From an uncultured Clostridia bacterium (GTDB lineage: Bacteria > Bacillota_I > Bacilli_A > RF39 > UBA660), in NCBI GenBank assembly GCA_946619755.1, contig CAMOMI010000001.1, forward strand, positions 33,441-97,440: a stretch of 64,000 nucleotides of DNA, in the 5' to 3' direction. The notes below the pieces were generated by a model. The model searched no databases. It had not been told where the DNA came from and worked only from the letters and a program-made list of their open reading frames with translations. Positions 4,473 through 24,031 of the stretch are shown here, in pieces. A program made the position numbers and the translations under genes. Each line of letters begins with the position of its first letter. Position 1 is the first letter of the stretch.

Positions 4473-4494
4473 TTTTTGTACCCCTCTCTAACTA

Positions 4495-4974: not shown

Positions 4975-5099
4975 AATTATCCCTCCATATGTAAAAACAT
5001 ACTAAAAAAATTATAACATTTATTAATTTCATTTTCAAGTAAATACAACCACTAGACAAATAATATATTTTAAGTTAAAATTATTTTGGTGAAGCAATT

Positions 5100-6609: not shown

Positions 6610-6621
6610 GGATACTTTTTA

Positions 6622-7848: not shown

Positions 7849-7907
7849 TATATACCTCACCATCTTCAAATATATTATAACAATTTTTTTATAGATAAAG
7901 CAAGAAT

Positions 7908-8183
7908 TCACTTAACATTTAATTTTATAATTGTACATCCTGAATTAAAATTATCCATTTTATATTCTAAAACATTTTTATTATGTTTTAATGCCTCATG
8001 AACTTCATTTTTGACTATACCACTACCAATCCCATGAATAATAACGATTGTATCATTACCTAAAATAACATTTTCCATAACAAAATCGTTGGTCATCATC
8101 CGTGCACTATCTCTATCATATCCGTGTAAATCAATTCTAGGATATCTTTCTAAAAAAATATCGTATACTTCATTTTTTTCCAT
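7908..8183 (-). CDS. Smr (small MutS-related) domain protein
   Basis: [11 protein letters not shown] ... [12 protein letters not shown] ... NSGCTII: Smr-domain signature boxes; 91 aa. Confidence 0.7.
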
Positions 8184-8193
8184 CTCATCACCC

Positions 8194-9414
8194 CTATAAC
8201 GGTAGTTCTATTATACAGTCAGTTCCTTTATTTTTAATACTCTCATATGTCATTTTGCCATTATGAGCCATAATTATTTCATTAGATAATGCTACTCCTA
8301 ACCCAGTACCATTTTTCTTAGTTGTAAAAAACATTTCCTTAATATTAGATAACTCTTCACTATTCATACCTATACCATTATCACTTATTTTAACAAATGC
8401 TTTATTAGCTTCTTGGAACAATTCTATATTTATTATACCATTTTGTTCTATTGATTCAACACTATTTTTTATTACATTAACAAATACTTGTTTAAGTCTA
8501 TCATAATCAGCCTGTAAATATACTTCTTCACAATCGCTTTTATATTTAAAGCAAATATTATTATCCCTCATAAGTATTTCAAAAGATTCATATATCTCAT
8601 CTAAAAGCATCACCAAATCTATTTCTTCTTTATTAACCTTAATCTTGCTATATTCCATAAAATCAGCAATAACATTTAAACTTCTATCAATTTCTGACTT
8701 AATAATATCAATGTATTTTCTACTCTTTAGCTTATCATCTAAATTAATCATATCTAGATATCCTTTACATACTGCAATTGGATTTTTTATTTCATGTGTA
8801 AGTTTAAATAAAGAGTCCTTAAGTTTACTATCATTACTAAACTTATTTATGGTCTTATATAAAGAACTAACATCACTAGCCAACTTAAATAAATATAAAC
8901 AAAAGAAAGTTATTCCATATATTATAAAAATATAAATAATTAACCCTAATAGTTTATGAATATCATCATAAGTATTCATAAAATACTCAAATGATATAAA
9001 GAAAGCTTGGACTATAGCACTAACTTTTAAAAATAAATAATTAAAATCTTTTCGTTGACAAAGTAATAAAAAAGTAATTAAATAGCCAACATACTTAATA
9101 CTCACGACATATACATTAATATCGTACATAATATAACTATAAATAAGTATAATTAATGAAACTATTACCCCTAATAACCATTCTCTTTTAAAATAACATA
9201 TAAGTATTGGAATATTACAAAGTAATAGCAATCTTCCACAAACAAAATTATACTTTAAACTTAAATATATTGATGTAATTATCGTTATTACAAAAAAAAC
9301 TTTTTCAATATTTCGATCATTTAAAGAATTATAACAACTAAATACCAAATACATTAGCACTGGAAATACTACTAAAATAATACTTAATAATACATCTTCC
9401 ATTATAATCACCAA
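8194..9414 (-). CDS. sensor histidine kinase, multi-TM intramembrane-sensing type; no response regulator in the window
   Basis: About 6 N-terminal TM helices then directly H-box FKLTHEIKNPIAVCKGYLDMI, N/G boxes ISDNGIGM and GTGLGVALS; no extracytoplasmic domain, HAMP or PAS. Confidence 0.8.
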   Translation of the reverse strand: MVIIMEDVLLSIILVVFPVLMYLVFSCYNSLNDRNIEKVFFVITIITSIYLSLKYNFVCGRLLLLCNIPILICYFKREWLLGVIVSLIILIYSYIMYDINVYVVSIKYVGYLITFLLLCQRKDFNYLFLKVSAIVQAFFISFEYFMNTYDDIHKLLGLIIYIFIIYGITFFCLYLFKLASDVSSLYKTINKFSNDSKLKDSLFKLTHEIKNPIAVCKGYLDMINLDDKLKSRKYIDIIKSEIDRSLNVIADFMEYSKIKVNKEEIDLVMLLDEIYESFEILMRDNNICFKYKSDCEEVYLQADYDRLKQVFVNVIKNSVESIEQNGIINIELFQEANKAFVKISDNGIGMNSEELSNIKEMFFTTKKNGTGLGVALSNEIIMAHNGKMTYESIKNKGTDCIIELPL

Positions 9415-9434
9415 ATAAATTATAGAATATCTTA

Positions 9435-9484
9435 TATGTCATATTTTGTCGAATTATGTCAAATTATTTAATTTTATGTCAAAA
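9435..9484. promoter_or_regulatory. five tandem 10-bp phased units T(A/T)TGTC(A/G)NNN upstream of the histidine-kinase gene
   Basis: tatgtcatat / tttgtcgaat / tatgtcaaat / tatttaattt / tatgtcaaaa in strict 10-bp register, 20-70 bp upstream of the HK start. Confidence 0.3.
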
Positions 9485-9499
9485 AAAATAAGCTTACGC

Positions 9500-9814
9500 C
9501 TATTTTAATTCTCTTATATATTTTTTTAGTTGCTTAGCATCAGGACCAAAGATAATCTTTAATTGATCATCTATTTCAACCACTCCTTGTGCCCCCAATT
9601 TAATAATTCCTTCTTTATTTGCTTTAGTAATATCTTTCAAAGTAACTTTAAATCTAGACATTTCCATCTCAGTTTCAAGAATATTATCTTTACCACCTAA
9701 TAGTTCTACAAGTTTATTAAACTCAAGAGCTAAATCTTTTCTGTTACTTTTAACAATCGCAAAAGCAATAATTAAGAAAAATACTATTATAAAAGCATAT
9801 TGATACCATTCCAT
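9500..9814 (-). CDS. membrane-anchored PTS EIIB(Glc)-like domain protein with the phospho-accepting Cys replaced by Glu (pseudo-EIIB)
   Basis: LVELLGGKDNILETEMEMSRFKVTLKDITKANKEGIIKLGAQGVV aligns along its length with PtsG IIB [45 protein letters not shown]; the Cys column is E. N-terminal single TM. Start set to ATG 9814 (GAGGTG RBS 6 nt upstream). Confidence 0.65.
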   Translation of the reverse strand: MEWYQYAFIIVFFLIIAFAIVKSNRKDLALEFNKLVELLGGKDNILETEMEMSRFKVTLKDITKANKEGIIKLGAQGVVEIDDQLKIIFGPDAKQLKKYIRELK

Positions 9815-9920
9815 GTTACACACCTCTATTTAAATTATACAATAAAATAAAAAATATAACAATAATATTGTCTAAAATAATCAAATTTGATATAATTAAA
9901 AAAGTAAAGGTGGTAGTAAA

Positions 9921-11240
9921 ATGAAGAAATTAAGTTTTCAAAAAATATTCTGCTTTTTAAGTTTTTTATTTATCTTATCATGTTGTGTCTTTTATGGTTC
10001 TAGATTTATAAAATTATACTTACAAAACAGAAAAATAGAAATTGAAGAAAAGAATTCTTTAATCAAGGTATTAAAGGAAAACAATATGGATAATGAATAT
10101 TTTAAATCAGTAAATGGTCAAAACTATTTTACTAGTAAAACTGATAATAATTATCTTCTTTATTCCGGTATTATATGGCGAATTATTAAAGTAAATGATG
10201 ATAATTCACTAACTGCTATTAGTGAAAATGCTATTTCATCACTAGCTTATGGCAAAGACAATAAGTTTAATGAATCACATATCTTTAATTGGTTAAATAA
10301 AAATGATAGTGATTATTCAGGTATTTTAGAAAAAAATTTAAACAATATTGATAAGTATTTACAAAAAACAACTTCTTGTACTGATTCATTAGATGAATTA
10401 TCTAATAATCCATGTAAAGAAAGCAATACAGATAATTACTTCACCCTATTATCAGTTATTGATTACTTAAATATTGGTTCTAAAGATAGTTATTTAGTTA
10501 ATGATGAATACTTTTATTTAAGCAACACTAACAATGAAAATAAAGTTTGGTATATTGATGATAGTGGTAAATCAAATCTAAGTACAGGTAATGATATTTT
10601 AGGTGTAAGACCAGTTATTACTATCAAAGCAAATATTGATTATGTAAGTGGTAATGGTACCATTAATAATCCTTATTTGATTGAAAAAGATAATGGCCTA
10701 TTTGGTAGCTATGTTAAATTAGGTAATGATATTTGGCGTATTTATGATATTAACGATAATGAAATTAAACTAATGCTAAATGATTATTTAAAAGTTAATG
10801 GCACTAATTTATCATACCGCTATTCAACTTCTACATCATATCATAATGATACTATACCAGGAAGTATCGCATACTACTTAAATAACAATTATTTAAATAG
10901 TTTAAGTTATAAAGATAAAATAAAAGAAACCAAATGGTCAAATGGTTATTATAATAGTACAACTGATTTTGATTATTCAAATTCTTTAAAAGAAACAGTT
11001 GACACCAAAGTAGCCCTAATGAGTGTTGGTAATATCTTTTTAAATAGTGAGCTAAATAATTATTTTACAATGACTGGTTCCGCAAATAGATCAAGCATGG
11101 TGTATACAACTCAAAAAAATGCTAAATTATACACAAAACAAATAGGCACTAGTCTAAATGTTGTTCCAACAATTGCTGTTGATAAAAATATATTAACAAA
11201 AGGAAATGGTACTAAAGATAGTCCATTTGAAATGGAGTAA
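9921..11240 (+). CDS. hypothetical secreted/membrane-anchored Asn-rich protein
   Basis: N-terminal hydrophobic anchor FCFLSFLFILSCCVF; 439 aa, no catalytic motif recognised; 4-nt gap to next gene. Confidence 0.5.
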   Translation: MKKLSFQKIFCFLSFLFILSCCVFYGSRFIKLYLQNRKIEIEEKNSLIKVLKENNMDNEYFKSVNGQNYFTSKTDNNYLLYSGIIWRIIKVNDDNSLTAISENAISSLAYGKDNKFNESHIFNWLNKNDSDYSGILEKNLNNIDKYLQKTTSCTDSLDELSNNPCKESNTDNYFTLLSVIDYLNIGSKDSYLVNDEYFYLSNTNNENKVWYIDDSGKSNLSTGNDILGVRPVITIKANIDYVSGNGTINNPYLIEKDNGLFGSYVKLGNDIWRIYDINDNEIKLMLNDYLKVNGTNLSYRYSTSTSYHNDTIPGSIAYYLNNNYLNSLSYKDKIKETKWSNGYYNSTTDFDYSNSLKETVDTKVALMSVGNIFLNSELNNYFTMTGSANRSSMVYTTQKNAKLYTKQIGTSLNVVPTIAVDKNILTKGNGTKDSPFEME

Positions 11241-11244
11241 TATT

Positions 11245-12282
11245 ATGAAGAAACACAGAAAGAAAAAGAAAAAAATAAATAAATTAACTATTCTCTTTAT
11301 TATTTTAGATATCCTTGCTATTGGCGGATTTATAATGATGTATGGCCCATGGGATACTGTTAGGAACTTTTATGTCACAACTGCTATGAAAACCAAAGAT
11401 CATAAATACTTTGCTAACATTTTCTACAATGATAAAACTATTGAAAAAATATTAAATAGTAACTACTTCGTTGAAATTAAAGAAGATGTAAAACTAGATG
11501 ATATTGTTATTGATACTGCGCCTAAATCAAGTTATGATAATAAATATGATGAAGAAATATTAACACGTACTCCGGGAAATAATGACTACAAAATTATTAA
11601 TATTAAAGTTGGTATATCAAAGGGATACCTAATTGCCATTTATGATCCAACTAAAGTATCCCTAATAAGAGCAAAAAATTTCAACATTGGCAGATATGGT
11701 GAACAAGTAACAGCCATGTGTAATCGATATAATGCATCTGTATGTATCAATGGCGGTGGTTTTGAAGATCCTGCTGGAACTGGATCTGACATTCCTCTTG
11801 GTTACGTAATTGATGATGGTGAAATTGTTTGGCCAGCAAGTGGTTGGGATACTAATACTGGTAATTTAATTGGTTTTAATGGTGAAGGAAAATTACTATT
11901 ATTGGCAGATTCTACCGGTACAGCAGCTCTTGAAGCTGGTATGATGGACGGCCTTGAATTTGGTCCATTCCTAATTGTTAATGGTAAACCAATTGAAATT
12001 GTTGGTGATCCTTGGGGTAAATCTCCAAGAGTAGCCATTGGCCAAAGAAAAGATGGAGTTGTACTATTTTTAGTAATTGATGGAGAAAACTATATAGATG
12101 GTGCTTCATTAAGTGATGTTGTTGATGTCTTTACAAAATATGGTGCATACAATGCTGCCAACTTAGATGGAGGACACTCTTCATCACTATCAATAAATGG
12201 TAGCTTATACAACAATCCACCAGCCATTGCTAAAAGACAAGGTGGAAGATATGTTGTAAGTGGATTTGGATTAATGAAATAA
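11245..12282 (+). CDS. phosphodiester glycosidase family protein (NAGPA/DUF2233 domain), membrane-anchored
   Basis: NGGGFEDPAGTG ... AIGQRKDGVVLFLVIDG ... ANLDGGHSSSL: signature boxes of the NAGPA 'uncovering enzyme'-like domain; poly-Lys N-terminus then TM; start ATG 11245 with GGAG RBS. Confidence 0.7.
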   Translation: MKKHRKKKKKINKLTILFIILDILAIGGFIMMYGPWDTVRNFYVTTAMKTKDHKYFANIFYNDKTIEKILNSNYFVEIKEDVKLDDIVIDTAPKSSYDNKYDEEILTRTPGNNDYKIINIKVGISKGYLIAIYDPTKVSLIRAKNFNIGRYGEQVTAMCNRYNASVCINGGGFEDPAGTGSDIPLGYVIDDGEIVWPASGWDTNTGNLIGFNGEGKLLLLADSTGTAALEAGMMDGLEFGPFLIVNGKPIEIVGDPWGKSPRVAIGQRKDGVVLFLVIDGENYIDGASLSDVVDVFTKYGAYNAANLDGGHSSSLSINGSLYNNPPAIAKRQGGRYVVSGFGLMK

Positions 12283-12316
12283 AAACTTCAGAAGTTATTC
12301 TTCTGAAGTTTTTTCT
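12282..12316. terminator. bidirectional rho-independent terminator between 11245..12282 (+) and recA (-)
   Basis: Perfect 11-bp stem aacttcagaag / cttctgaagtt with loop ttatt, flanked by A-run and T-run. Confidence 0.6.
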
Positions 12317-13332
12317 TTACTTTTTTTATCCTTATTCTTACTTATACCATAATGCTCACGAACTAAAGTTTCAATTTCATTTCTAAAATCTTGATTACTA
12401 GCAAATAACAATTTAACATTTTCTCTTCCTTGAGCTAATTTTTCTCCCTTATAAGAATACCATGCGCCACTTTTTTCAATTATATTAGCTTCGGCTGCCA
12501 AATCTACAAGTTCACCATTTTGACTAACACCTTCACCATACATAATATCAACAGTGGCACTCTTAAATGGCGGTGCTACTTTATTTTTTACAACTTTAAT
12601 ATTAGTCCTATTACCAATAACATCAGTACCATTCTTTATCTGTTCTCCTCTTCTTATATCTAATCTAACTGAAGAATAATACTTTAATGCCTTACCACCT
12701 GGTGTCGTTTCAGGATTACCAAACATAACACCAACTTTTTCTCTTAATTGATTAATAAATATAACAATTGTATTTGTTTTATTAATTGAACCAGATAATT
12801 TTCTTAAAGCTTGCGACATAAGTCTTGCTTGAAGTCCTACATGACTATCCCCCATCTCGCCATCAATTTCTGCTTGTGGTACTAAAGCCGCTACTGAATC
12901 AATTACAATTATACTTACAGCTTCACTCTTAACAAGCGCATCACATATCTCTAATGCCTGTTCTCCAGTATCTGGTTGACTAAGTAATAATTCATCAATA
13001 TTTACTCCTAAATTACTTGCATAAACCGGATCTAATGAATGTTCTGCATCGATAAACGCTGCTCTTCCGCCAGTCTTTTGCACTTCGGCGATGGCATGTA
13101 ATGCAAATGTCGTCTTACCAGAAGATTCTGGACCATATATTTCAATAATCCTTCCCTTAGGATATCCACCAACGCCTAAAGCTATATCTAAAGAAATAGA
13201 ACCACTAGGTACCACATCTATCTCCATATTTTTTTGTTCCCCTAATTTCATTATTGCCCCTTTACCAAATTGCTTCTCAATATCTGCTAATACTTGTTCT
13301 AAGGCTTTATCTTTTTCTACTGTCTTACTCAT
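12295..13332 (-). CDS. recA: recombinase RecA
   Basis: [33 protein letters not shown]..., Walker [10 protein letters not shown], full-length 345 aa. Confidence 0.95.
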
Positions 13333-13473: not shown

Positions 13474-13505
13474 AATAAAAAAACAAGAAGTTTTAACCTC
13501 TTGTT
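13474..13505 (-). terminator. rho-independent terminator for LtaS-family gene 13505..15445
   Basis: On the minus strand: aacaagagg-ttaaaa-cttcttgtt followed by TTTTTTT, immediately after the stop codon. Confidence 0.45.
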
Positions 13506-15445
13506 TAATTCAATTTTGGTATTAAATCATATGTAATAATATTATTAGATACTTCGATAATATCATCGGCATACTCACTTCTTTTACTAATATAATCATC
13601 TGAAATAACACCACTCGATAAAGTATATGCTTCATTATTTTTTGCACTATAATATATCTTATCTGTTATATATGAACTATCTCTAAATACTATAATACCA
13701 TCTTCTTTTTTAATACTCATGACATCTTGACCTAAAGCATATTTATTATATACATTTAACATATTACCAAGTGTTGGTAAAACATCAATCATTCCCATTG
13801 GTGTATTAATATTTTTGCTAGTCTTCATATCTTTAGTCCAAATAATAAATGGTACTCTTCTAGACAATTCATAATCATAATCATTAAACTCAGTATAATC
13901 ATCATCTAAAGAAGTAAGTACTTTATCAGTAACTGGATCATAATTATACATATAATCAAATTGACCCTTACTCATTCTAGCATCATGATCACCATAAATA
14001 ACAATTACAGTATCATCGAGCAACCCTTCTTTATCCATATCATTTATAAAATTGCCAATCGCCTTATCCATATAATTAACTGATTTAATATACCTACCCA
14101 TCATAGTATTTTCTAAATAATCTCTTTTAACTTCTACGCCGTCTATATTAACAGTTTTAGAAACATCAAAGTTACTATATTTATAGGCATCTTTCCAAGG
14201 AGTATGATTAGTAAGTGTAATAAGTGTGCCATAAAATGGTCCAGGAACTTCTTCGCTAATTTCTTTAATTTTTGGTACAACTTGTCTAAAGAATGACTCA
14301 TCTGATAATCCTAAACCATATTCTTCATCAACTACAAAAGAACTTTTTGAATAAAACTTATCATATCCCATATTCATATGCATTGTTTCTCTATTCCAAA
14401 AATCTCCTACATTGCCATGCATACTAAAGACATAATATCCTTTATTTTTAAGTAAATTCTGCATAGTTACAAACTTATCATTATAATAATTTACAAAAAC
14501 AGTTCCATTATTTGAAGGAAGTAAACTAGTTGCAAAAGTAAATTCAGTATCTGAACTTGTTCCAACACCAACCTGAGCATAAAAATTATCAAAATACATT
14601 CCAGAATTAATTAGTTTATTTAAATTAGGGGTAACTTCTTTGTCATTAAACTTAAGTCCTATTGTAAAACCTTGCAAACTTTCTGCATGAATAACAATAA
14701 CATTTTTTCCTTCAAATATACCAGTATATTCATTCTTCTTTAATATTTTTTTATTTTCGTTATAATATTCATTCGTATCTTTTAAAGCCTTATCATAACC
14801 AAAAATATTATTAAATGTTGGTCTTAAGCTTTGAACTAAATCATCTACTTGATAAACATAAGGTCCCCAACTATCAAAAACCATTACTCTATTCCATAAT
14901 TTATACAATCTACTAAAAGACGTATATGGTGGTAATGCGCATCCAATAACCATTAATATTAAAGATATCCAAAGAAATACAGAATATTTTTTCTTATTAT
15001 CTCTTTCTCCAATTTTATTTTTCTTTATAACCCAAAACATAGTTATTAATAACCATAAGTATGAAAAATCGCAAGGTCTAACCACCATTTCAACAATAGC
15101 ATCACCAACATCTTTCACAAAAACAGACGTTGCTAACAAAGATACTGATATAAAAGAATTATAATAGTTATAATAAAGTGAATTAGCTACACATATTACC
15201 ACCATAAAAAAAGTAGTTATTCCATAAAATAAATTTTTTCTTTTGACTAATAATGATAATCCAGCTAAAACAAGAATAAAAGCCATATCAAAAAAAATTG
15301 ATCTAACTTGAAAATGCCCTGTCGTAAATAATCTTACTAATATTGCATTAATAAAATTCCCTACAATATAAATACTCATAACTGGATATCTATCCTTAAA
15401 TTTCCTTATCTTATCAAAAAAATTATTAATATTAATATTCTTCAT
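13505..15445 (-). CDS. LtaS-family lipoteichoic acid synthase/primase (5-TM + extracellular sulfatase-fold domain)
   Basis: N-terminal polytopic segment, then sulfatase domain with catalytic Thr box AQVGVGTSSDTEF (cf. S. aureus LtaS GTSADAEF). Confidence 0.85.
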   Translation of the reverse strand: MKNININNFFDKIRKFKDRYPVMSIYIVGNFINAILVRLFTTGHFQVRSIFFDMAFILVLAGLSLLVKRKNLFYGITTFFMVVICVANSLYYNYYNSFISVSLLATSVFVKDVGDAIVEMVVRPCDFSYLWLLITMFWVIKKNKIGERDNKKKYSVFLWISLILMVIGCALPPYTSFSRLYKLWNRVMVFDSWGPYVYQVDDLVQSLRPTFNNIFGYDKALKDTNEYYNENKKILKKNEYTGIFEGKNVIVIHAESLQGFTIGLKFNDKEVTPNLNKLINSGMYFDNFYAQVGVGTSSDTEFTFATSLLPSNNGTVFVNYYNDKFVTMQNLLKNKGYYVFSMHGNVGDFWNRETMHMNMGYDKFYSKSSFVVDEEYGLGLSDESFFRQVVPKIKEISEEVPGPFYGTLITLTNHTPWKDAYKYSNFDVSKTVNIDGVEVKRDYLENTMMGRYIKSVNYMDKAIGNFINDMDKEGLLDDTVIVIYGDHDARMSKGQFDYMYNYDPVTDKVLTSLDDDYTEFNDYDYELSRRVPFIIWTKDMKTSKNINTPMGMIDVLPTLGNMLNVYNKYALGQDVMSIKKEDGIIVFRDSSYITDKIYYSAKNNEAYTLSSGVISDDYISKRSEYADDIIEVSNNIITYDLIPKLN

Positions 15446-15580
15446 AACACAACACCTTTTTTACACATACACATTATACCATATTTTTGTAAAATAAACT
15501 ATCCTTTATTTACTTGATAAACATTTAATGTTATAATTAACATACGATTATTATTTAAAATAATAAATAAGGTGGTAAAA

Positions 15581-17587
15581 ATGAAAGTATCAAAGAAAAA
15601 GAAGAAGAAAAAAATAACCAAAAAGCAAATTATTTGCTTCTTAAAATTTATTTTTGATAAAATAGTTACTTTTTTATATAAATATAAATATATTTTCATA
15701 ATGATATTACCATTTATTGCTATGGATATAATTACTAGATTATTTGGAAGTAGTATTAATTTTTATAAAACATATCGCCTTCCTCCTAATCTATTTACTA
15801 TATCATGGACAATATTATTTATTGGTTTATCACTAAGTTTTAGCAAAAAAATTGGTAAAAGATTATATTTGATATTTAATATTATTTTTTTAGCTATGTT
15901 TTTAACTAACAACGTATACTTTTCAATGACTAAAACGTTTTTTGATTTTAACTTAATTGAATCAGCTTCTGAAGGTGCTCCTTATATTCTTGACGCCTTA
16001 AAGAACTGTAATATTCTAGTATATATAGCCTTTACTTTTATTATTATTTTAATATATTACGGTTATAAACACATTCCCTATAAAACTAAGGGAAATAAAA
16101 AAATATTTATATATACTATTATACTTTTCTTAATTATTCATACAATTACACCATTTACCTTAGGTAAAGCTAATCAAGAATTAACTTGGTCTTCATGGCG
16201 TAATCCAAGAAATATTTATAATTCGTTTAATGATAGCAACAAAAGTTTTAAAGTTAGTGGATTATATGAATATACCATTAGAAATTTTTATATCACGTTT
16301 TTAAAAACCGAATCTGAAGAAAATAGTGAAGATATTGAATTTCTAAATCTAGCTTTCGAGAATATTGAAACCCATAAAAATAAATATACTGGTATCTTTA
16401 AAGATAAGAATTTGATATTTGTCCAACTTGAAGGTTTAGATACATGGCTTATGACTGAAGAAGATACACCAACATTTATGAAAATGAAAAATAATGCTTA
16501 TGTTTTTAATAATCACTTCTCATATTATAATGGTGGTGGATCAACATTTAATTCAGAATTTGCCGTTAACACTGGTTTTATCACTCCATTATCTTATACT
16601 CAAAACGCATATACTTTTAACAAAAATTATTTTCCATATTCAATGGCACATTTGTTTAAAAACTTAGGTTATATAGTTAATGCTTTTCATATGAATAGTG
16701 GTGAATATTATTCACGAACAGTTAATTATAAAAATTGGGGATACGACAATTATTATGGCTTAAAAGATATGTTTGATTATTCCGATAACACTCACACCTT
16801 AGATAGAGAATTAGTTTTAAATGAAACCTTTAATGAACTAATGTTCCCAGAAGAAGGAAAATTCGTAGATTACGTTATTGCCTACTCTAGCCATTTGCCT
16901 TTTACTAATACTAAAGGCGTATGTAAATTATTGTACGATTTAGATCACGCTCCCGTAGAAACCGATGAAAACAAAAATAATGATAGTGAAACTACAGAAA
17001 CTGATACCAAGAAAGCTGAAGAAATAGTTAGAGAACCAATGACAGAAGAAGAATGCGCTCGTCGCCAAGCTAAAGAAACCGACTATATGATGGAATTAAT
17101 CTTACAAAATCTTGAAGAAAAGAATTTATCAGATAATACCATTGTTATCGTATTTACTGACCATTATTTATATACCATTGAAGATAAATCAATATTAGAT
17201 AGATATAAGGAAACCAGCAACAACCTAATTAACAAAACGCCATTCTTTATTTACAGTAAGAATACTAAAAAGACTAACATTAATAAAGTAACTTCTCAAT
17301 TAAATATTTTGCCAACAGTTTTAAATCTATGGGGAATTGATTATAGTTCAAATAATTATATTGGCAAAGATGCTCTAGATCCTAAATATGAAGGAATCGT
17401 CTTCTTTAGTGACTACTCTTGGTATGATGGTAATGTTTATGTTGCCAATGGTGAAATAACTAATGGTAAATCAATCTCATATGATAAATTAGAAGAAAAG
17501 AACTTCTATGTAAGTAATATGACAAAAAAGAACGATTTGGCTCTAAAATATAATTATTTTAAGAAGAAAAATAATGAAGATCATTAA
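15581..17587 (+). CDS. second LtaS-family enzyme (paralog), with acidic insertion
   Basis: 5 TM + sulfatase domain, catalytic box NGGGSTFNSEF; Glu/Asp/Thr-rich insertion ETDENKNNDSETTETDTKKAEE; start set to ATG 15581 after AAGGTGG RBS; poly-Lys N-terminus. Confidence 0.8.
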   Translation: MKVSKKKKKKKITKKQIICFLKFIFDKIVTFLYKYKYIFIMILPFIAMDIITRLFGSSINFYKTYRLPPNLFTISWTILFIGLSLSFSKKIGKRLYLIFNIIFLAMFLTNNVYFSMTKTFFDFNLIESASEGAPYILDALKNCNILVYIAFTFIIILIYYGYKHIPYKTKGNKKIFIYTIILFLIIHTITPFTLGKANQELTWSSWRNPRNIYNSFNDSNKSFKVSGLYEYTIRNFYITFLKTESEENSEDIEFLNLAFENIETHKNKYTGIFKDKNLIFVQLEGLDTWLMTEEDTPTFMKMKNNAYVFNNHFSYYNGGGSTFNSEFAVNTGFITPLSYTQNAYTFNKNYFPYSMAHLFKNLGYIVNAFHMNSGEYYSRTVNYKNWGYDNYYGLKDMFDYSDNTHTLDRELVLNETFNELMFPEEGKFVDYVIAYSSHLPFTNTKGVCKLLYDLDHAPVETDENKNNDSETTETDTKKAEEIVREPMTEEECARRQAKETDYMMELILQNLEEKNLSDNTIVIVFTDHYLYTIEDKSILDRYKETSNNLINKTPFFIYSKNTKKTNINKVTSQLNILPTVLNLWGIDYSSNNYIGKDALDPKYEGIVFFSDYSWYDGNVYVANGEITNGKSISYDKLEEKNFYVSNMTKKNDLALKYNYFKKKNNEDH

Positions 17588-17594
17588 ATCTTCA

Positions 17595-17786
17595 TTATTT
17601 TAATTTTCTATATAAAATATATATTGCTAATGATAAAAAGATAAATGTATATAAAAGCGTAATTATGAAAATACATATTTTTAATAAGGATTTATTTTTT
17701 ATCTTCTTTTTTAAATAATTAACTGGTTTTAAATAAAACGTTGTCCCAAAACCTTCATTATAGAATTGATCTATATATTCCTTCAT
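17595..17786 (-). CDS. small membrane protein (63 aa) translationally coupled to the upstream GT2 synthase; candidate IcaD/PgaD-like accessory subunit
   Basis: ATG 1 nt after the GT2 stop; hydrophilic N-terminus then one TM (ICIFIITLLYTFIFLSLAIYILY); called by position and topology only. Confidence 0.4.
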   Translation of the reverse strand: MKEYIDQFYNEGFGTTFYLKPVNYLKKKIKNKSLLKICIFIITLLYTFIFLSLAIYILYRKLK

Positions 17787-17787
17787 C

Positions 17788-19302
17788 TTACCCTACCTTA
17801 TTAAGGTCATCAATTGTAACCTTACTTTCATGAGGAATTGGCTTCCATTCTACCTTTTTAAATAGAGCTATATAAATCGTATATCTACCAATAATATCAA
17901 AAGTTGGCCAAGTAAATACATAAAGTAACTTCTTCCAAATGCTCATCTTTTTTATTCTAGCTTGTTCAACTATAAATAAGTATACAGCCATCCACATGCT
18001 TACAAAATAATTACCTATTCTATATAAGATTCTAAGCCAAATAGCAATTAACATAGCATACAACATTCCACCAATTCCTGGATCTAAATTAACTTTTATA
18101 TTTAAATATCTTCTAAGTAATTTAGCTAACCAAGTTCCACCGCCAAAAAGTGCTACTTCACTAATACCATTTGAATACACCATACATCCATATATAAAAA
18201 CCATAATTATAAGCCATCTACATAAATTAATAAATGATATTGGAGTAAGTTGAACCAATGTATCAAAAGAAGCAAATCGATGTCTAATTGATTCTAAAAA
18301 GTTGGACCAAAAACCAATTTTCTTTTGTTTTCTATTCATTACTTCCTTATCTTTATTCCAATTAGTTTTAATATATTTCTTACCCATAAAAATATTTATA
18401 AATAAATATGGACCAGACTCAGCAAACGCTTGTAGATGTCCTTTAGACCAACGAAGTCGCTGTCTTAAAGCCACCTTTAAGCTAACTGGTTGCTCATCAA
18501 AAAACTCTGCCTCATCCTGGTAAGTTATTTCATATCCTTGTGCTACTGCATCTGCCGTTAGCGCCCTATCTTCTGTAAGTGATGTATAATGCCAACCATC
18601 TTTAACGATTTCATTAGCAAATAAAAAGCCAGTTCCTTGAATATTGGTAGCTAAATGCAATACACTTCTAGCCCTATGATTAGTTCTAATAGATCTAATC
18701 CAATGAAGTGCATATGTCGAAGCAATCCAATTCTCGTCAAAATTTTTCGTATTCCTATAAGAAGTAATAATTTTACATCCCTCATCAAAAGCATCATTCA
18801 TTTTACTTATATAATCACTTTTTAAAAGATTATCAGCATCAAATACAAAAAAGCCTTCAAACTTATCTCTTCCATAGTCTTCTTCAATTTTTTCAAATAA
18901 ATATTCTAATGCATACCCTTTTGTTCTATGTTCAGAATCATTTCGTTCATAACAGATAGCTCCTTTATTTCTAGCTATCTCTGCTGTATTATCAGTACAA
19001 TTATCCGCTACTACAAATATCGTTAAAAGATCTTTAGGATAATCCTGTTTATTAATACTATCAATTAAATTACCAATAACATATTTTTCATTTCTTGCTG
19101 CAATAACAATTCCATATTTATGCTTTTTTTTGGCCTGTTTAAACTTTCTCGTAAAAAACATACCAATTACAAAGTAAAAAGTTTTATGAATTACTACTGC
19201 ACTTAAAATAGTTCCCAGAATATTATAAAAATTTTTACTAACTGGATACAAACTACCAATTGCCCTTAATAATGTATCAAAAAAATTACTTATTGCTTCC
19301 AT
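17788..19302 (-). CDS. processive family-2 glycosyltransferase (PgaC/IcaA/cellulose-synthase-like)
   Basis: GT-A domain with DxD boxes (VVADNCTDNT, FDADN) and the processive-synthase QRLRW motif; N-terminal TM plus ~4 C-terminal TMs. Confidence 0.8.
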   Translation of the reverse strand: MEAISNFFDTLLRAIGSLYPVSKNFYNILGTILSAVVIHKTFYFVIGMFFTRKFKQAKKKHKYGIVIAARNEKYVIGNLIDSINKQDYPKDLLTIFVVADNCTDNTAEIARNKGAICYERNDSEHRTKGYALEYLFEKIEEDYGRDKFEGFFVFDADNLLKSDYISKMNDAFDEGCKIITSYRNTKNFDENWIASTYALHWIRSIRTNHRARSVLHLATNIQGTGFLFANEIVKDGWHYTSLTEDRALTADAVAQGYEITYQDEAEFFDEQPVSLKVALRQRLRWSKGHLQAFAESGPYLFINIFMGKKYIKTNWNKDKEVMNRKQKKIGFWSNFLESIRHRFASFDTLVQLTPISFINLCRWLIIMVFIYGCMVYSNGISEVALFGGGTWLAKLLRRYLNIKVNLDPGIGGMLYAMLIAIWLRILYRIGNYFVSMWMAVYLFIVEQARIKKMSIWKKLLYVFTWPTFDIIGRYTIYIALFKKVEWKPIPHESKVTIDDLNKVG

Positions 19303-19429
19303 CTATACCTCTCTAACATAAATAAATTATACCACACATATTGGTTTAAGTAAAAACACTACTTTAATTTTACTAAAAAACTAATTAATTGTCTACATAA
19401 TATGATATAATTAACAAAAGGAGTAAAGC

Positions 19430-20380
19430 ATGAAAAAGATTAGTATTATCATTCCTTGTTACAATGAAGAACAAGCCATTCCTTATTTCTACAAAGAAAT
19501 AACTAAAATTGCCAAAAATATGAAAACTGATTTTGAGTATATTTTTGTTAATGATGGTTCTAAAGATAAAACCTTAGATGTTATCAAAAAAATAGCCAAA
19601 AAAGATAAAAAGGTTAAATATATCCATTTTTCAAGAAACTTTGGAAAAGAATCAGCAATGTATGCAGGTTTAGAATTATCAACAGGTGACTATGTTGCCA
19701 TTATGGATGCCGATCTTCAAGATCCTCCAGCATTAATTCCAGAAATGTTAAGCATTTTAGAAGATCCAAATGAAGATTATGACTGTGTTGGTTCAAGAAG
19801 AGTTACGCGTAAAGGAGAACCTAAAATTAGAAGTTTCTTTGCAAGACAATTCTATAAAATAATAAATAAATTATCTAAAATTGAAATGGTTGATGGTGCT
19901 CGAGATTTTCGATTAATGACGCGACAAATGGTCAATTCAATTTTAGAATTAAAAGAATATAATCGTTATTCCAAAGGATTATTTTCCTTTGTTGGCTATA
20001 ACACAAAATGGCTAGAATATGAAAACATTAAACGAGTTGCTGGTGAAACTAAATGGTCATTTTGGAAACTATTCACATATGCCATCGAAGGCATAATTGC
20101 TTTTTCGACAACCCCATTAGCTATTGCTGCTTTTATTGGTATCTTATTCTGTTTTATTGCCTTTATACTGATTATTATTATTGTTGTAAGAACGCTTATT
20201 TATGGCGATCCAACATCAGGCTGGCCAAGTTTAGTATGTATTATCTTCTTTGTTAGTGGTATTCAATTATTTTCTCTTGGTATTATCGGTGAATACTTAT
20301 CAAAAACATATCTTGAAACAAAAAAAAGACCAATCTATATTATTAAGGAGACTAATATTAATGATCATAAAACTATATAA
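19430..20380 (+). CDS. polyprenol-phosphate glycosyltransferase (CsbB/GtrB/ArnC-like GT2)
   Basis: IIIPCYNEE ... DADLQDPP signature of GtrB/CsbB family, two C-terminal TM helices. Confidence 0.8.
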   Translation: MKKISIIIPCYNEEQAIPYFYKEITKIAKNMKTDFEYIFVNDGSKDKTLDVIKKIAKKDKKVKYIHFSRNFGKESAMYAGLELSTGDYVAIMDADLQDPPALIPEMLSILEDPNEDYDCVGSRRVTRKGEPKIRSFFARQFYKIINKLSKIEMVDGARDFRLMTRQMVNSILELKEYNRYSKGLFSFVGYNTKWLEYENIKRVAGETKWSFWKLFTYAIEGIIAFSTTPLAIAAFIGILFCFIAFILIIIIVVRTLIYGDPTSGWPSLVCIIFFVSGIQLFSLGIIGEYLSKTYLETKKRPIYIIKETNINDHKTI

Positions 20381-20789
20381 TCAAAACAAAGAAATCATTA
20401 ATTACTTAATTTTTGGAATTCTTACTGCTATCGTTAGTTTAACTACTTATTATGCCCTTGTTCTAACTATTTTAAATCCTAATAATCCTATTGAACTACA
20501 AATAGCCAATATAATTTCATGGATTGTTTGTGTAACATTTGCCTATTTTACTAATCGCAAATACGTATTTATTAGTCAAGATAAACACATTTTAAAAGAA
20601 GCCTGCCGATTCTATTTATCCAGACTAGCTGTTCTATTACTTGATATGTTACTTATGTATATTCTTGTCTCAAGATTGCATTATAATGACAAAATAATGA
20701 AAATTGCTATTCAAATAATTATTACTGCGGCTAACTATATTTTAAGTAAACTACTAATATTTAAACAAACAAAGAAGTCTAACAACTAG
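20361..20789 (+). CDS. GtrA-family polysaccharide-flippase-like small membrane protein
   Basis: ~143 aa, 4 TM, NRKYVF motif region; ATG 20361 preceded by GGAG and overlapping the csbB-like stop. Confidence 0.7.
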   Translation: MIIKLYNQNKEIINYLIFGILTAIVSLTTYYALVLTILNPNNPIELQIANIISWIVCVTFAYFTNRKYVFISQDKHILKEACRFYLSRLAVLLLDMLLMYILVSRLHYNDKIMKIAIQIIITAANYILSKLLIFKQTKKSNN

Positions 20790-20800
20790 ACTTCTTTTTA
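20772..20800. terminator. bidirectional terminator between gtrA-like (+) and amidase (-) genes
   Basis: agaagtcta / tagacttct 9-bp stem, loop acaac, followed by TTTT; A-run upstream. Confidence 0.5.
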
Positions 20801-22453
20801 TAAACAATTACTATTATCACTTTTATATGTTCCACCAATATAAGTAACATATTCCTTAATTTTAAGTTCTGATATTTTAATCCAATTATTACTTGAATAA
20901 TACCAATTAAAATCATTAGCATTTGTTAAATATATTGGTTCATATATAACATTTTTAACGTTAAATAGCTCATATGGTATTCTAAGTACTGAATAAAAAT
21001 TCTTATTACTATATACTTCTCCATTAGACTTATTAAATATCTGATCATTATAATAATCTTTTGAATACATTCTAATTTTATCATCATTAATATTATAGAA
21101 TTTTCTAAACTTACTATACAAGGCTAATTCTGGAGTTAATTCTTCTTTTGTAATAGTATTCTGAACCAATATTTCAAACCCATGTTCTCCCGTATTAAGT
21201 GAGCCATTATGATGATTACTATATGTTATTCTACTTACAGATCCATAATAACCGGTAGTAAGGCCTCTTCTATCCAACGGATCAAGACTACTACTACCTA
21301 ACATTTCTCCATATGTATCATCATATCTAACCATATATACTTTATATCCCATCGATTCATAACGACATTTTTCATACTTAGATACTTTTAAATTAAGATC
21401 TTTTTCCAAAACAATACCATTAGATGCCCCAATATCTGATCCCCCATGTCCTGGATCAATTACAAAATCATATTTATACTCAAATTCTTCAATCGTAATT
21501 GTTACAATATCATCATTGTAATTAAATGTTACTAATTTATTTCCAACCTTAGCTCTTACTATTCTTGAAAAAATATCTAACTTATTAATTAATTTTTCTT
21601 CCTTACTACCAACCACATATACATCATATTCTCCATCTTTAACTTTTGTTAAATCAAGATTACCTTTATAATAATTTATTCTATCACTACTCATATTATA
21701 TGTATACTCTAATCTGCTTTTTTTACTTTTAAGTTTTATCTTATAATTATTGGAATTATTATTAAAATATCCTTCAATATAAACTCCATCTTTGTTAAAA
21801 TTATTTTTAATAATTGTATTTGAATATAATGTTACGTTATAAGAATTATAGCTTACTCTTCCACCATATTCGTTATGAACATTAATAACTGGTTTTTTAA
21901 CTACTACTTTTCGCGTAGTTTCACTTTTATTTCCACTATTATCACTAACTTTATAAGTAAGTATATATTCTCCTTCTTTATTCGTATCAACATTTCCCGA
22001 TACTTTTACTTCTTTTTCTAAATTGGTATCATAATTATCTGTTACTACATAGCCTGACTCATTATATTTTCCACCAAGTAAAATAAATACTTCTTCTCCA
22101 CCATTTAACTTAATAACCGGTGCTACTTTATCAATAACAATAACATTACGATATACATATTCATCAGCAATTTGATATTTAACTTTATATTCTCCTAGTT
22201 TTGAAGTATCTACTTGACTAGTATCAATATTAACTCTATTACTAACATCAGTACCATTATATAAAACTTTTATACCATATTCTTGATAATCATTATCAAC
22301 ATCAATATATAAATTTTCAGGTCCAATAAGTTCAAAACTATAATTCCCATCATTATCATACTCAAAAGAGTAAGTTATTCCAAGAAAACTAACTATTAAA
22401 ATAACAATTAAAATTGATACATAATAAACCTTTCTCATAAATACCACTCTCAT
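20798..22453 (-). CDS. N-acetylmuramoyl-L-alanine amidase (Amidase_3) with N-terminal membrane anchor and Ig-like (DUF5011-type) domain
   Basis: C-terminal FVIDPGHGGSDIGA ... NHHNGSLNTGEHGFE (Amidase_3 zinc-site boxes); Ig-like repeat VIDKVAPVI...GNVDTNKEGEYILTYKVSDNSGN. Confidence 0.75.
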   Translation of the reverse strand: MRVVFMRKVYYVSILIVILIVSFLGITYSFEYDNDGNYSFELIGPENLYIDVDNDYQEYGIKVLYNGTDVSNRVNIDTSQVDTSKLGEYKVKYQIADEYVYRNVIVIDKVAPVIKLNGGEEVFILLGGKYNESGYVVTDNYDTNLEKEVKVSGNVDTNKEGEYILTYKVSDNSGNKSETTRKVVVKKPVINVHNEYGGRVSYNSYNVTLYSNTIIKNNFNKDGVYIEGYFNNNSNNYKIKLKSKKSRLEYTYNMSSDRINYYKGNLDLTKVKDGEYDVYVVGSKEEKLINKLDIFSRIVRAKVGNKLVTFNYNDDIVTITIEEFEYKYDFVIDPGHGGSDIGASNGIVLEKDLNLKVSKYEKCRYESMGYKVYMVRYDDTYGEMLGSSSLDPLDRRGLTTGYYGSVSRITYSNHHNGSLNTGEHGFEILVQNTITKEELTPELALYSKFRKFYNINDDKIRMYSKDYYNDQIFNKSNGEVYSNKNFYSVLRIPYELFNVKNVIYEPIYLTNANDFNWYYSSNNWIKISELKIKEYVTYIGGTYKSDNSNCL

Positions 22454-22562: not shown

Positions 22563-22592
22563 TAAAAAAAGAGTACTATTATAATACTCTAT
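22563..22592 (-). terminator. rho-independent terminator after pgsA
   Basis: On the minus strand: gagta-N-tactc hairpin followed by TTTTTTT just beyond the pgsA stop. Confidence 0.4.
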
Positions 22593-23182
22593 TTGTCAAT
22601 TATGTATTCTCTTGCCATCATATAATATTTCGCTCCAGATAATATTGCTAACACGCTTGCTAATATTAATAGATAATCTGATATTCTAATTGATATTAAT
22701 GAAAATGGTAAATCATAAAATAGTTTTAATGTTAAACCAACCATAAGTGAAGCAGTCTTATATTTAGCTACTGAAATAGCAGCTACTGCCTTTCCCTTAT
22801 TACCAATTAACATCTTGATTGAATCAACAATAATATCTCTTCCTATAATAATTACGGCAATAACTGGATGTACCATATTCTCAGCTGCTAATACAACAAT
22901 AAGTGTATTAGTTAATAGTTTATCACTAATAGCATCAATCATTTTGCCAAAATCAGTTACCATATTATATTTTCTAGCTACCTTACCATCAATAAAATCA
23001 GTAATTGATGCAATAATAAACAAAACACCAGCAATTACATATCTTAAATCAATTGTCATACTTCCATTAACAATATATGTTGGTATCTCGACACCGATTT
23101 GATGCCATGGAAATAACAATATAAACAATATAACAATTGATAAAAAAATTCTTGACATTGTTATTTTATTAGCTGCATTCAT
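22589..23182 (-). CDS. pgsA: CDP-diacylglycerol--glycerol-3-phosphate 3-phosphatidyltransferase
   Basis: CDP-alcohol phosphatidyltransferase motif DFIDGKVARKYNMVTDFGKMIDAISDK; ~197 aa polytopic; rodZ-pgsA synteny. Confidence 0.9.
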   Translation of the reverse strand: MNAANKITMSRIFLSIVILFILLFPWHQIGVEIPTYIVNGSMTIDLRYVIAGVLFIIASITDFIDGKVARKYNMVTDFGKMIDAISDKLLTNTLIVVLAAENMVHPVIAVIIIGRDIIVDSIKMLIGNKGKAVAAISVAKYKTASLMVGLTLKLFYDLPFSLISIRISDYLLILASVLAILSGAKYYMMAREYIIDK

Positions 23183-23184
23183 TT

Positions 23185-23652
23185 CTACCTCCTAATAATA
23201 TAAGTTGTATTATTATCTTGAAAATCATTTCCTTTAATCTCACTTACTATTAAATACCCAACTACTATAAGCACTGCAACAATTATCAATGAAATAATAA
23301 ACATTTTTATATTGTTACCATTATTACTAACTTTCGTATAAGGAGATACTACCTCTTTTTTACTTTTATTAGTTTCCTTAGCCTTTTCAATATCATTAAC
23401 AGGTATCTTAGACGTAAAATCAAATAAATATTCATTAAACTCATCAATTATTTTCTCACCATCAAGTCCCAAATATTTCGCATAATCTCGAATAAAATAT
23501 TTTAAAGTCATTACATCTTTAAAATTTTCACGCTTACCACTTTCTAAACTTTCAATTTGACTAGGTCTCATCTTTAAGTCTTCAGCCGCTTCTTCGATCG
23601 AGACACCATTCTCTTCCCTTTTTTCTTTTAATTTCAATCCTATATCTTTCAT
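23185..23652 (-). CDS. rodZ: RodZ-like cytoskeleton protein (XRE-type HTH + TM)
   Basis: N-terminal HTH (LKEKREENGVSIEEAAEDLKMRPSQIESLESG), central TM, located directly upstream of pgsA as in B. subtilis ymfM(rodZ)-pgsA. Confidence 0.65.
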   Translation of the reverse strand: MKDIGLKLKEKREENGVSIEEAAEDLKMRPSQIESLESGKRENFKDVMTLKYFIRDYAKYLGLDGEKIIDEFNEYLFDFTSKIPVNDIEKAKETNKSKKEVVSPYTKVSNNGNNIKMFIISLIIVAVLIVVGYLIVSEIKGNDFQDNNTTYIIRR

Positions 23653-23680: not shown

Positions 23681-24031
23681 AATTATCTTATAAGCCACAT
23701 TCTGTACCTAAAAAAGGCGACAAACATTTATCTATAGCATAGCTATCCATCTCACAGATTCTTATTCTCCTAAGATAGTTCCCCTACCAAAATTTGGGTT
23801 TCTCACTTGTGGGGTTTACCGCGTTTCACTCTATTCATTTCTAAATAGCATCGTCACTGTGGCACTTTATACCCATCTATCCATAGCATAGCCTTAGAAT
23901 AGACAGATGCCGTAAGGCCGAAGCCTCCCATAGGTTATTTTTTCCCTAAGCGCAAACACTACTATCATCACAGATAGTGTGAGTGTGGACTTTCCTCTAA
24001 GTATTACTACTCAGCGTTTGTCTAGATAATT
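23681..24031 (-). ncRNA. rnpB: RNase P RNA, bacterial type B (Bacillus-type)
   Basis: The minus strand carries the conserved type-B boxes in order: AGAGGAAAGUCCAC (P4 5' strand), AAAGUGCCACAGUGACGA (P10.1/P11 region), GUGAAACGCGGUAAACCCCAC and GAGAAACCCAAAUUUUGGUAGG (P15 region), matching B. subtilis rnpB. Ends chosen from P1 pairing AAAUUAUCU / AGAUAAUUU. GC-rich island with no ORF. Confidence 0.85.

Follow-up and report, generated by a model that had tools for sequence, protein, structure and literature searches.

A conserved GT2-LtaS gene pair and a variable glycosylation cassette in gut Firmicutes

Introduction

Sugar exporters accompanied by a transferase of the alkaline-phosphatase superfamily are known from OpgH-OpgB and from GacH with GacI, GacJ, GacK and GacL, the GacH system placing glycerol-phosphate on the N-acetylglucosamine (GlcNAc) side chains of the streptococcal group A carbohydrate. 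Another precedent is BcsA-BcsG of Escherichia coli and Salmonella, responsible for phosphoethanolamine (pEtN) cellulose (PMC8892547), in which a membrane-embedded processive glycosyltransferase of family 2 (GT2) is combined with a membrane-anchored transferase, BcsG, that adds a phospholipid head group to the emerging glycan. Here we describe a gene pair of comparable composition, found in a 64,000-nucleotide stretch (contig CAMOMI010000001.1, assembly GCA_946619755.1, positions 33,441 to 97,440; hereafter the window) of an uncultured gut bacterium. It consists of GT2_504, a GT2 protein of 504 amino acids (aa), and LtaS2, a member of the lipoteichoic acid (LTA) synthase family LtaS, and it is accompanied in the window by a second LtaS-family gene (LtaS1) and by GtrB-like and GtrA-like genes.

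The likeness to BcsA-BcsG, and by analogy to OpgH-OpgB, lies in the combination of the two enzyme types. The components are different, as LtaS2 belongs to the LtaS clade and shows no homology to BcsG in profile searches, GT2_504 lacks a PilZ domain and has only about four transmembrane helices, partners corresponding to BcsB, BcsE or BcsF are absent and the host is Gram-positive. The arrangement of GacH with GacI/J/K/L, an LtaS-like transferase that comes with a GtrB-like synthase and a glycosyltransferase of the GT-C type, is mirrored by the operons LtaS2-GtrB-YfhO-GtrA of sister loci described below; however, the LtaS2 profile retrieved no GacH structure at E <= 0.01 and there is no rhamnan cluster here. 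The superfamily of every component is already known, as is the principle of a synthase joined to an alkaline-phosphatase-type transferase (pEtN cellulose, PMC8892547). What is novel in relation to the literature is the breadth of the pair in gut Firmicutes, its high conservation between classes and the exchange of the cassette after LtaS2 for one that contains YfhO.

Results

The two genes of the pair converge in the window:

15572/15581..17587, plus strand: LtaS2, 671/668 aa; PF00884 at 2.1e-27
17788..19302, minus strand: GT2_504, 504 aa; Glyco_tranf_2_3 at 3.9e-22, Glyco_trans_2_3; QRLRW at residues 281-285

We have examined the surroundings of the best 80 of 580 GT2 relatives from species-representative genomes, and the pair was checked in these 80 loci alone. 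Their GT2 proteins, 56-83% identical to GT2_504, belonged to Bacilli and Clostridia (e.g., Lachnospiraceae, Acutalibacteraceae). For the 78 loci with a called GT2, a partner was defined as an LtaS-family gene within 1.6 kb, and absence was accepted only with flanks of at least 2.2 kb on both sides. A partner was found in 45 of the 66 scorable genome loci (21 did not have it and 12 were unscorable), and it was of the LtaS2 type in 40 cases, of the LtaS1 type in four and of a third type in one. When all the neighbouring open reading frames (ORFs) were clustered without supervision, the LtaS-family gene was the only recurrent neighbour family of the GT2. The reverse set, centred on 80 LtaS2 homologs in metagenome loci, gave a GT2 directly downstream of LtaS2 in 53 of 71 scorable cases.

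The orientation of the pair changed between groups: in Bacilli-type loci the two genes converge, 5-300 bp apart, and in Clostridia they run in the same direction or overlap. The identity of GT2_504 between the two classes was 56-68%. An abundant Lachnospiraceae lineage has the GT2 and LtaS2 overlapping by 38 nt and flanked by groEL and guaB, with no other envelope genes nearby. We also found a natural fusion of 1253 aa (P0242, L082 1697-5458) that joins a synthase of the GT2_504 family (54% identity) to an LtaS-family domain belonging to a fourth subtype. GT2_504 and LtaS2 are a tight two-gene module, a pair conserved across two classes of Firmicutes, and the link of a GT2 synthase to an alkaline-phosphatase-superfamily transferase that typifies BcsA-BcsG is found here in 45/66 and 53/71 loci and in one fusion. 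The original prediction for this region, made by a model from the letters of the window, had named genes that are indeed present, and missed this widely conserved pair, which is the main signal. A separate arrangement was seen in L042 (10010-13057), where tandem GT2 copies (66% and 62% identity to GT2_504) are followed by one LtaS2 ortholog.

The other features of the region, from recA to pgsA, are:

12295..13332: recA, at the opposite end of the island from pgsA
13505..15445, minus strand: LtaS1, 646 aa; PF00884 at 5.9e-40; NCBIfam LtaS model (NF053595) 287 bits
15446..15580: intergenic region LtaS1/LtaS2, AT-rich, 135 bp, promoter-like hexamers on both strands, LtaS2 ribosome-binding site
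19430..20380, plus strand: GtrB-like polyprenyl-phosphate hexosyltransferase, 316 aa; structure 5EKP at 8.4e-78
20361..20789, plus strand: GtrA-family small four-helix membrane protein, 142 aa; PF04138 at 1.8e-22
20798..22453, minus strand: Amidase_3 with Ig-like domains, secreted N-acetylmuramoyl-L-alanine amidase; PF01520 1e-15, PF16403 4.3e-32
22589..23182, minus strand: pgsA, phosphatidylglycerol-phosphate synthase; TIGR00560 139 bits against a cut-off of 109

Within the lineage of the window the order NAGPA-recA-LtaS1-LtaS2 was constant and the stretch past LtaS2 varied. GT2, GtrB and GtrA occupy this slot in the window and in L001, L090, L091, L094-L098 and L152. A tight co-directional operon GtrB-YfhO-GtrA, right after LtaS2 and without GT2_504, takes their place in L101-L104, L106, L107 and L114 (in L103 the operon LtaS2-GtrB-YfhO-GtrA covers 3989-9845), and in L099 the slot is empty, with LtaS2 abutting the amidase and pgsA. 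Compared with the window, the proteins of the YfhO variant were 82% (GtrB), 68% (GtrA) and 94% (recA) identical, and the YfhO of the sister operon is full length (838 aa, PF09586 at 4e-62). Nine of the 18 GT2-free loci of the LtaS2-centred set carry GtrB-YfhO-GtrA directly downstream; added to the 53 loci with GT2, this makes 62 of 71 scorable loci in which a sugar-exporting system adjoins LtaS2. All four genes, GtrB, GtrA, YfhO and GT2, occur together in L069, and in L140 (4218-7118) a fusion of 966 aa, a full-length YfhO GT-C with a C-terminal GtrA-family domain, comes right after the LtaS2 ortholog. The slot is a variable glycosylation cassette that contains GT2 plus GtrBA, GtrB-YfhO-GtrA or nothing. 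The five genes that had been presented originally as one unusual locus are, with a constant recA-LtaS1-LtaS2 part and a swappable part, a lineage-specific juxtaposition built around the GT2-LtaS2 pair.

The two cassette proteins of the window other than GT2_504 are true members of the GtrB and GtrA families. The GtrB-like protein, with an N-terminal GT2 domain and two C-terminal hydrophobic segments or transmembrane helices, matched GtrB and ArnC structures over the full length, 5EKP (GtrB; residues 3-307) at 8.4e-78 and the ArnC structures at about 1e-38 to 1e-41, and its best NCBIfam match was PgfS, the protein-glycosylation enzyme of Streptococcus mutans, at 343 bits, under the cut-off of 500. 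GtrA has four hydrophobic segments and is a candidate flippase or accessory protein of the GtcA type. Its most likely start is the ATG at 20361 (142 aa) rather than the TTG at 20250; this start overlaps the stop of gtrB by 20 nt, and gtrA would be translationally coupled to gtrB. In the three-component systems of the CsbB/GtlA-YfhO/GtlB-GtcA type, YfhO-family GT-Cs glycosylate LTA, the product of LtaS (PMC5836110, PMC7389260). That GtrB and GtrA are of this LTA-glycosylating type, as had been proposed, agrees with the location of their orthologs, which flank the full-length YfhO downstream of LtaS2 in the same chromosomal slot. The earlier remark that no GT-C of the YfhO type was present also holds for the 64-kb window, in which we found neither a large polytopic ORF nor a tblastn match to the sister-locus YfhO, which leaves the three-component system incomplete here.

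Searches of the PDB with the sequence and profile of GT2_504 gave weak local matches (the N-terminus of TarS; HAS1 and CslF6 at the QxxRW region), too weak for a call, and therefore we used fold comparison. The AlphaFold (AF2) model was obtained from 103 diverse sequences, after a shallow alignment of 14 had given a predicted local distance difference test score (pLDDT) of 49 and had been discarded; it reached a pLDDT of 94.8 and a predicted template-modelling score (pTM) of 0.92. Foldseek found matches over the whole length with E from 5e-14 to 1e-9, probability 1.00 and template-modelling (TM) scores of 0.42-0.55, values that indicate a shared architecture but no close relationship. The best match was the Xenopus hyaluronan synthase HAS1 (8smp; E 5e-14, TM 0.55), followed by CvHAS of a Chlorella virus, BcsA and yeast Chs1, and the matches included the E. 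coli BcsA-BcsG3 complex of synthase and pEtN transferase (9fmz, 9b8v). In the model a single transmembrane helix at the N-terminus precedes a cytoplasmic GT-A domain, and long interface helices lead to three transmembrane helices at the C-terminus. In the alignment of the 103 sequences, which goes down to 31% identity, the motifs D100/D104, D155-A-D157, T243-E-D-R246 and Q281-R-L-R-W285 were conserved in at least 90%; the stretch E-D-R-x-L-T aligns to D-D-R-H-L-T of HAS1, and the family has a conserved C-terminal tail W-K-P-I-P-H.

Judging by the model, GT2_504 is a membrane-embedded synthase with a fold like that of hyaluronan, cellulose and chitin synthases, and in its predicted layout it is similar to the small synthases that work as single proteins in streptococci and mycoplasmas. 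With class I hyaluronan synthases, NodC/chitin synthases and the glucan/galactan synthases of Mycoplasma it has in common the fold, the D/DxD/ED(R)/QxxRW motifs, the interface helices and the small transmembrane bundle (PMC11658790), and like these single-protein synthases it has no accessory secretion proteins. It differs from them in being only 12-16% identical to the solved synthases, in the W-K-P-I-P-H tail and in the linked LtaS-family genes.

The enzyme had been called PgaC/IcaA-like, i.e., a synthase of poly-N-acetylglucosamine (PNAG). This does not hold, with 45.8 bits in TIGR03937 against a cut-off of 422.3, a fold nearest to hyaluronan, cellulose and chitin synthases, and none of the expected partners PgaD/IcaD and PgaB/IcaB, either in the window or among 160 related loci. 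The closest curated model, EpsU, gave 109 bits against a cut-off of 700. Two further candidates were rejected: the beta-glucan synthases RiGT2 of Romboutsia and clostridial CcsA, whose BcsA-like family has proteins of 637 aa, and the Clostridium difficile glycolipid enzymes UgtA/UgtB/HexSDF, traced via homology of the GT4/GT28 type and unrelated to GT2_504. The broader GT2 superfamily around this enzyme (about 420-480 aa) has no curated NCBIfam equivalog (best EpsU, about 100 bits against 700), and its contexts are varied (e.g., an ABC-2 transporter), indicating that the link to LtaS is specific to the subfamily of about 500 aa. Fusions occur there too: in P0276 and P0277 the partners are a CofD-like domain (whole protein 1007 aa) and DUF218 (631 aa).

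Both LtaS proteins of the window share with the LTA synthases and primase, LtaS of Staphylococcus aureus, LtaS/YflE of Bacillus subtilis and LtaS and LtaP of Listeria monocytogenes, the N-terminal multi-helix membrane domain, the extracellular sulfatase fold, the metal ligands (E, D, H) and a hydroxyl nucleophile, and these are the best solved matches of both. Four to five hydrophobic N-terminal segments were found (five in LtaS2), and the LtaS_N domain (PF27449) is precomputed on a protein identical to LtaS1 and on most LtaS2 orthologs. Both fall below the cut-off of the NCBIfam LtaS equivalog model NF053595 (970 bits), LtaS1 with 287 bits and LtaS2, which is much more diverged, with 88, and they are best regarded as members of the LtaS family, not demonstrable equivalogs. 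A difference from the classical ltaS genes is that these have no conserved GT2 partner, whereas LtaS2 has one.

In all 43 sequences of the LtaS2 type (T2), the residues E287, T325, H373, R382, H441, D530 and H531 are unchanged. Equally invariant in the 43 are two changes with respect to S. aureus LtaS, W354 to Y380 and D302 to N327, the latter two residues past the nucleophile. The glycerol-phosphate pocket, formed in S. aureus by H347, W354, R356 and H416, is complete in LtaS1 and has in LtaS2 the H, R and H with Tyr for W354. The T2 profile matched LtaS/LtaP structures of Listeria, Bacillus and Staphylococcus at 7e-33 to 2e-29 and found no BcsG, EptA or other pEtN transferase in the PDB, and no GacH (none at E <= 0.01). 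LtaS2 is predicted to be an extracytoplasmic glycerol-phosphate transferase, the conserved partner of the GT2. The acidic Thr/Glu/Asp insertion noticed originally is real, a lineage-specific loop at about residues 458-490 of LtaS2, of variable length among orthologs and absent from the clostridial ones. Other proteins were found around this type in some loci. In L043 (7786-9882), L068 (9186-11297) and L073 (8609-10687) an LtaS-family protein of a third type, with about 700 aa and 22-27% identity to both LtaS1 and LtaS2, occurs a few kb from the GT2-LtaS2 pair, and in L129 (6250-8751) an MBOAT O-acyltransferase of 521 aa and a protein of 307 aa without Pfam match, which may be a polymer acylation pair, are beside a stand-alone LtaS2 ortholog.

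LtaS1 is more canonical. It aligned with B. subtilis LtaS (PDB 2w8d) at 5.5e-52 over residues 227-642, and its whole ectodomain also aligned with S. aureus LtaS at about 5e-42. Its membrane domain, at the N-terminus, is joined to an extracellular domain of sulfatase fold, and it retains the counterparts of S. aureus E255, H347, W354, R356, H416, D475 and H476. Ser297 (GVGT-S-SDTEF) aligns to the catalytic Thr300 of S. aureus LtaS and is Ser in all eight LtaS1-type sequences (8/8), seemingly a conservative change. The statement that both enzymes keep the catalytic Thr box is right for the metal ligands and for a nucleophile in both, and for the Thr itself in LtaS2 (T325), but not in LtaS1. LtaS1 (type T1) is probably a polyglycerol-phosphate LTA synthase.

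As to the genomic setting, the genes, coordinates and domain calls given before (two LtaS, the QRLRW GT2, GtrB/GtrA and the adjoining Amidase_3) were reproduced with ORFs and hidden Markov models (HMMs), and an identical stretch is present in an 87-kb metagenome scaffold whose independent gene calls agree with the ORFs of the window. Taking the HMM E-values and ORF lengths of the locus genes together, chance is excluded by a wide margin. The divergent LtaS genes do share a single AT-rich spacer of 135 bp, with TTTACT-17-TATAAT and a TG extension at 15509-15537 on the plus strand and a second promoter-like site at 15579-15550 on the minus strand (both consensus matches only), and direct reading gives the LtaS2 ribosome-binding site AAGGTGG 5 nt upstream of the ATG at 15581.

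The interval from recA to pgsA holds six genes (LtaS1, LtaS2, GT2_504, GtrB-like, GtrA and Amidase_3), with the housekeeping gene pgsA bounding the envelope island on one side. In many Firmicutes a gene for a helix-turn-helix (HTH) protein, pgsA and recA lie close together, as in the order ymfM-pgsA-cinA-recA of B. subtilis; in the window about 9 kb of envelope genes separate pgsA from recA, an HTH gene is beside pgsA (the two together at 22589-23652) and no cinA was seen. A bacterial class B RNase P RNA (23686-24029, minus strand, 282 bits) is flanked by the HTH gene and a DivIVA-like gene. Just past recA, at 9921-12282, a secreted protein of 439 aa without Pfam match overlaps the start of the NAGPA-family phosphodiester glycosidase (PF09992 at 6.6e-35), which adjoins recA in related loci too and could have sugar-phosphate polymers as substrate. 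Other ORFs without Pfam match are those of 499 aa (58365-59864, minus strand) and 354 aa (784-1848, minus strand).

We do not include the flanking genes in the system. The amidase does adjoin it, as had been said, but its membership was rejected, since it is a neighbour by inherited synteny that is beside pgsA also in the cassette-free L099. For pgsA, although it makes the glycerol-phosphate donor lipid, the same applies, as a housekeeping gene that stays where the cassette is absent (L099). A prophage origin of GtrAB was also rejected; the flanks are recA, pgsA and rnpB, with no phage genes.

The host is a gut bacterium of the Bacilli, uncultured and with a cell wall. The window has a low GC content (24-31%) and also carries murE, recA, mutS and the class B RNase P RNA. 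The nearest species-level relatives are metagenome-assembled genomes (MAGs) labelled uncultured Bacilli, Tenericutes, Erysipelotrichaceae and 'Clostridium sp. CAG:1000 / CAG:609'. Loci such as L001, L024 and L036, among others, have a gene order near-identical to that of the window in records labelled 'uncultured Muribaculaceae' or 'Mycoplasma'; since the taxonomy given for MAGs cannot be relied on, it was not used for inference.

Discussion

Our preferred reading, held tentatively and with somewhat less than even confidence, is that the core of GT2_504 and LtaS2 makes an LTA-like anionic glycopolymer, in which the exported sugar product is given glycerol-phosphate outside the cell. It builds on what was observed, namely which genes are present, their folds and the conservation of catalytic residues and of linkage, and for the donor lipid, the acceptor, the direction of the hand-over and the product we would propose the following steps. 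The cytoplasmic GT-A domain of GT2_504 would add sugars from a nucleotide sugar, and the product, a glycan or a lipid-linked oligosaccharide, would exit through the membrane domain of the enzyme itself. LtaS2, metal-dependent and with a Thr nucleophile, would take glycerol-phosphate from phosphatidylglycerol and place it on a sugar hydroxyl of the exported product, creating a sugar-glycerol-phosphate junction. The divergently transcribed LtaS1 would most likely make or extend a polyglycerol-phosphate chain, and GtrB/GtrA would produce a polyprenyl-phosphate sugar, and probably present or flip it, for decoration outside the cytoplasm by a GT-C of the YfhO type, which for the window's pair would be encoded elsewhere in the genome or be missing. 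The substituted LTA-like polymer of the original prediction is reasonable in this respect: both LtaS keep the nucleophile and metal ligands and GtrB/GtrA have orthologs in LtaS2-GtrB-YfhO-GtrA operons, and therefore a sugar-bearing glycerol-phosphate polymer would be expected.

Several facts speak for a hand-over of glycerol-phosphate to the GT2 product. The adjacency has been kept despite the change of orientation and across the divide between Bacilli and Clostridia; the nucleophile and all the metal ligands of LtaS2 are invariant, its closest solved relatives being LtaS/LtaP and not pEtN transferases; and the invariant changes specific to the LtaS2 clade are found next to the nucleophile and in the glycerol-phosphate pocket. 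On the opposite side, a partner is missing nearby in 21 GT2 loci and 18 LtaS2 loci, and therefore either the coupling is not obligatory or the partner is located elsewhere, and in four genome loci the neighbour of the GT2 is of the LtaS1 type, so the type of partner is not fixed. The adjacency is silent about which enzyme acts first and about whether a single glycerol-phosphate or a polymerised chain results, the fold matches of GT2_504 reflect architecture and no close kinship, the fusion P0242 is known from one metagenome contig of 6.7 kb, and we found no description of a GT2-LtaS pair in the literature.

The alternative that survives best, possible although we consider it rather unlikely, is a self-contained LTA pathway in which GT2_504 makes no more than a short glycolipid anchor (mono- to oligo-hexosyl diacylglycerol) and moves it to the outer leaflet, replacing YpfP/UgtP and LtaA, LtaS2 is the LTA primase or synthase acting on it, LtaS1 a second synthase, and the YfhO systems glycosylate the chain. 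LtaS releases diacylglycerol, a substrate for a glycolipid synthase, which would suit such a pathway. So would the conservation of the GT2 between Bacilli and Clostridia at about the level of core genes (56-68%), the placement of the two-gene operon among housekeeping genes (groEL, guaB), the LtaS1-type enzyme that follows the GT2 in four loci and the LtaS2-only loci among housekeeping genes, where the enzyme would be workable without the GT2. The sister operons LtaS2-GtrB-YfhO-GtrA fit as well, given that YfhO-family enzymes glycosylate the LTA made by LtaS (PMC5836110, PMC7389260). However, the known GT2 glycolipid synthases have no transmembrane channel domain, the feature that separates polysaccharide synthases from them (PMC11658790), the fold of GT2_504 is closest to polymer-translocating synthases, and LtaS2 is invariantly altered in a pocket that classical synthases keep.

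This pathway and a modification of the glycan in the manner of BcsA-BcsG, OpgH-OpgB or GacH would use the same donor and transfer chemistry and differ downstream. The YfhO operons and the LtaS2-only loci favour the former, because YfhO-family enzymes glycosylate LTA, and the predicted polymer-synthase fold and the altered glycerol-phosphate pocket would favour the latter. A more general proposal, which we advance as a doubtful but possible one, is that GT2_504 and an LtaS-type partner are a self-contained two-gene pathway for an LTA-like polymer or a phosphoglycerol lipoglycan. The enzyme similar to hyaluronan synthase would build and export the sugar part, replacing a cytoplasmic glycolipid synthase and a flippase, and the LtaS-type enzyme would phosphoglycerolate it on emergence, possibly in a complex like that of BcsA-BcsG. 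Such a pathway would be widespread in dominant gut Firmicutes (Lachnospiraceae, Acutalibacteraceae and uncultured small-genome Bacilli).

We consider it improbable that the two enzymes have independent functions, GT2_504 secreting a free exopolysaccharide similar to chitin, hyaluronan or PNAG, and LtaS2 being an ordinary LTA synthase, neighbours through co-regulation of the envelope, an idea near the LTA plus PNAG-like exopolysaccharide proposed originally. The synthase fold, with EDRxL/QRLRW motifs like those of NodC, chitin synthase and hyaluronan synthase, would agree with it, as would the relatives of the broader superfamily in unrelated contexts, e.g., beside an ABC-2 transporter, and the loci of either set in which the partner is absent (21 and 18). 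Yet the adjacency outlasts both the change of orientation and the Bacilli/Clostridia divide, a GT2-LtaS fusion protein exists, no other exopolysaccharide genes (deacetylase, PilZ, BcsB-like) are found beside the GT2 and the PgaC_IcaA model gives 45.8, with the cut-off at 422. A mechanism similar to that of Cps3S, with the polymer primed on phosphatidylglycerol and LtaS2 as the transfer or release enzyme, may be considered too. Very unlikely, in our opinion, is that LtaS2 moves another head group (phosphoethanolamine or a glycosylated phosphoglycerol) or is a hydrolase or release enzyme acting on a lipid-linked GT2 product: the clade-invariant W to Y and D to N changes, beside the nucleophile and in the glycerol-phosphate pocket, and the pEtN transfer by BcsG, the structural precedent for a synthase partner, are in its favour, but LtaS2 is far nearer to LtaS/LtaP (E about 1e-30), with no pEtN transferase detected, and keeps the counterparts of H347, R356 and H416.

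Polymers of the LTA type are major surface molecules, both as stimulants of immunity and for physiology, and their synthesis is barely known in the abundant Clostridia commensals of the gut and in the uncultured Bacilli of small genome. The pair of a synthase with an LtaS-like enzyme is a concrete candidate pathway for polymers of this type in gut commensals, and it would extend to Gram-positive envelopes the modification of an emerging polymer, the principle of phosphoethanolamine cellulose. Besides, the exchange of the cassette that follows LtaS2 suggests a route to the variation of surface glycans among closely related gut strains.

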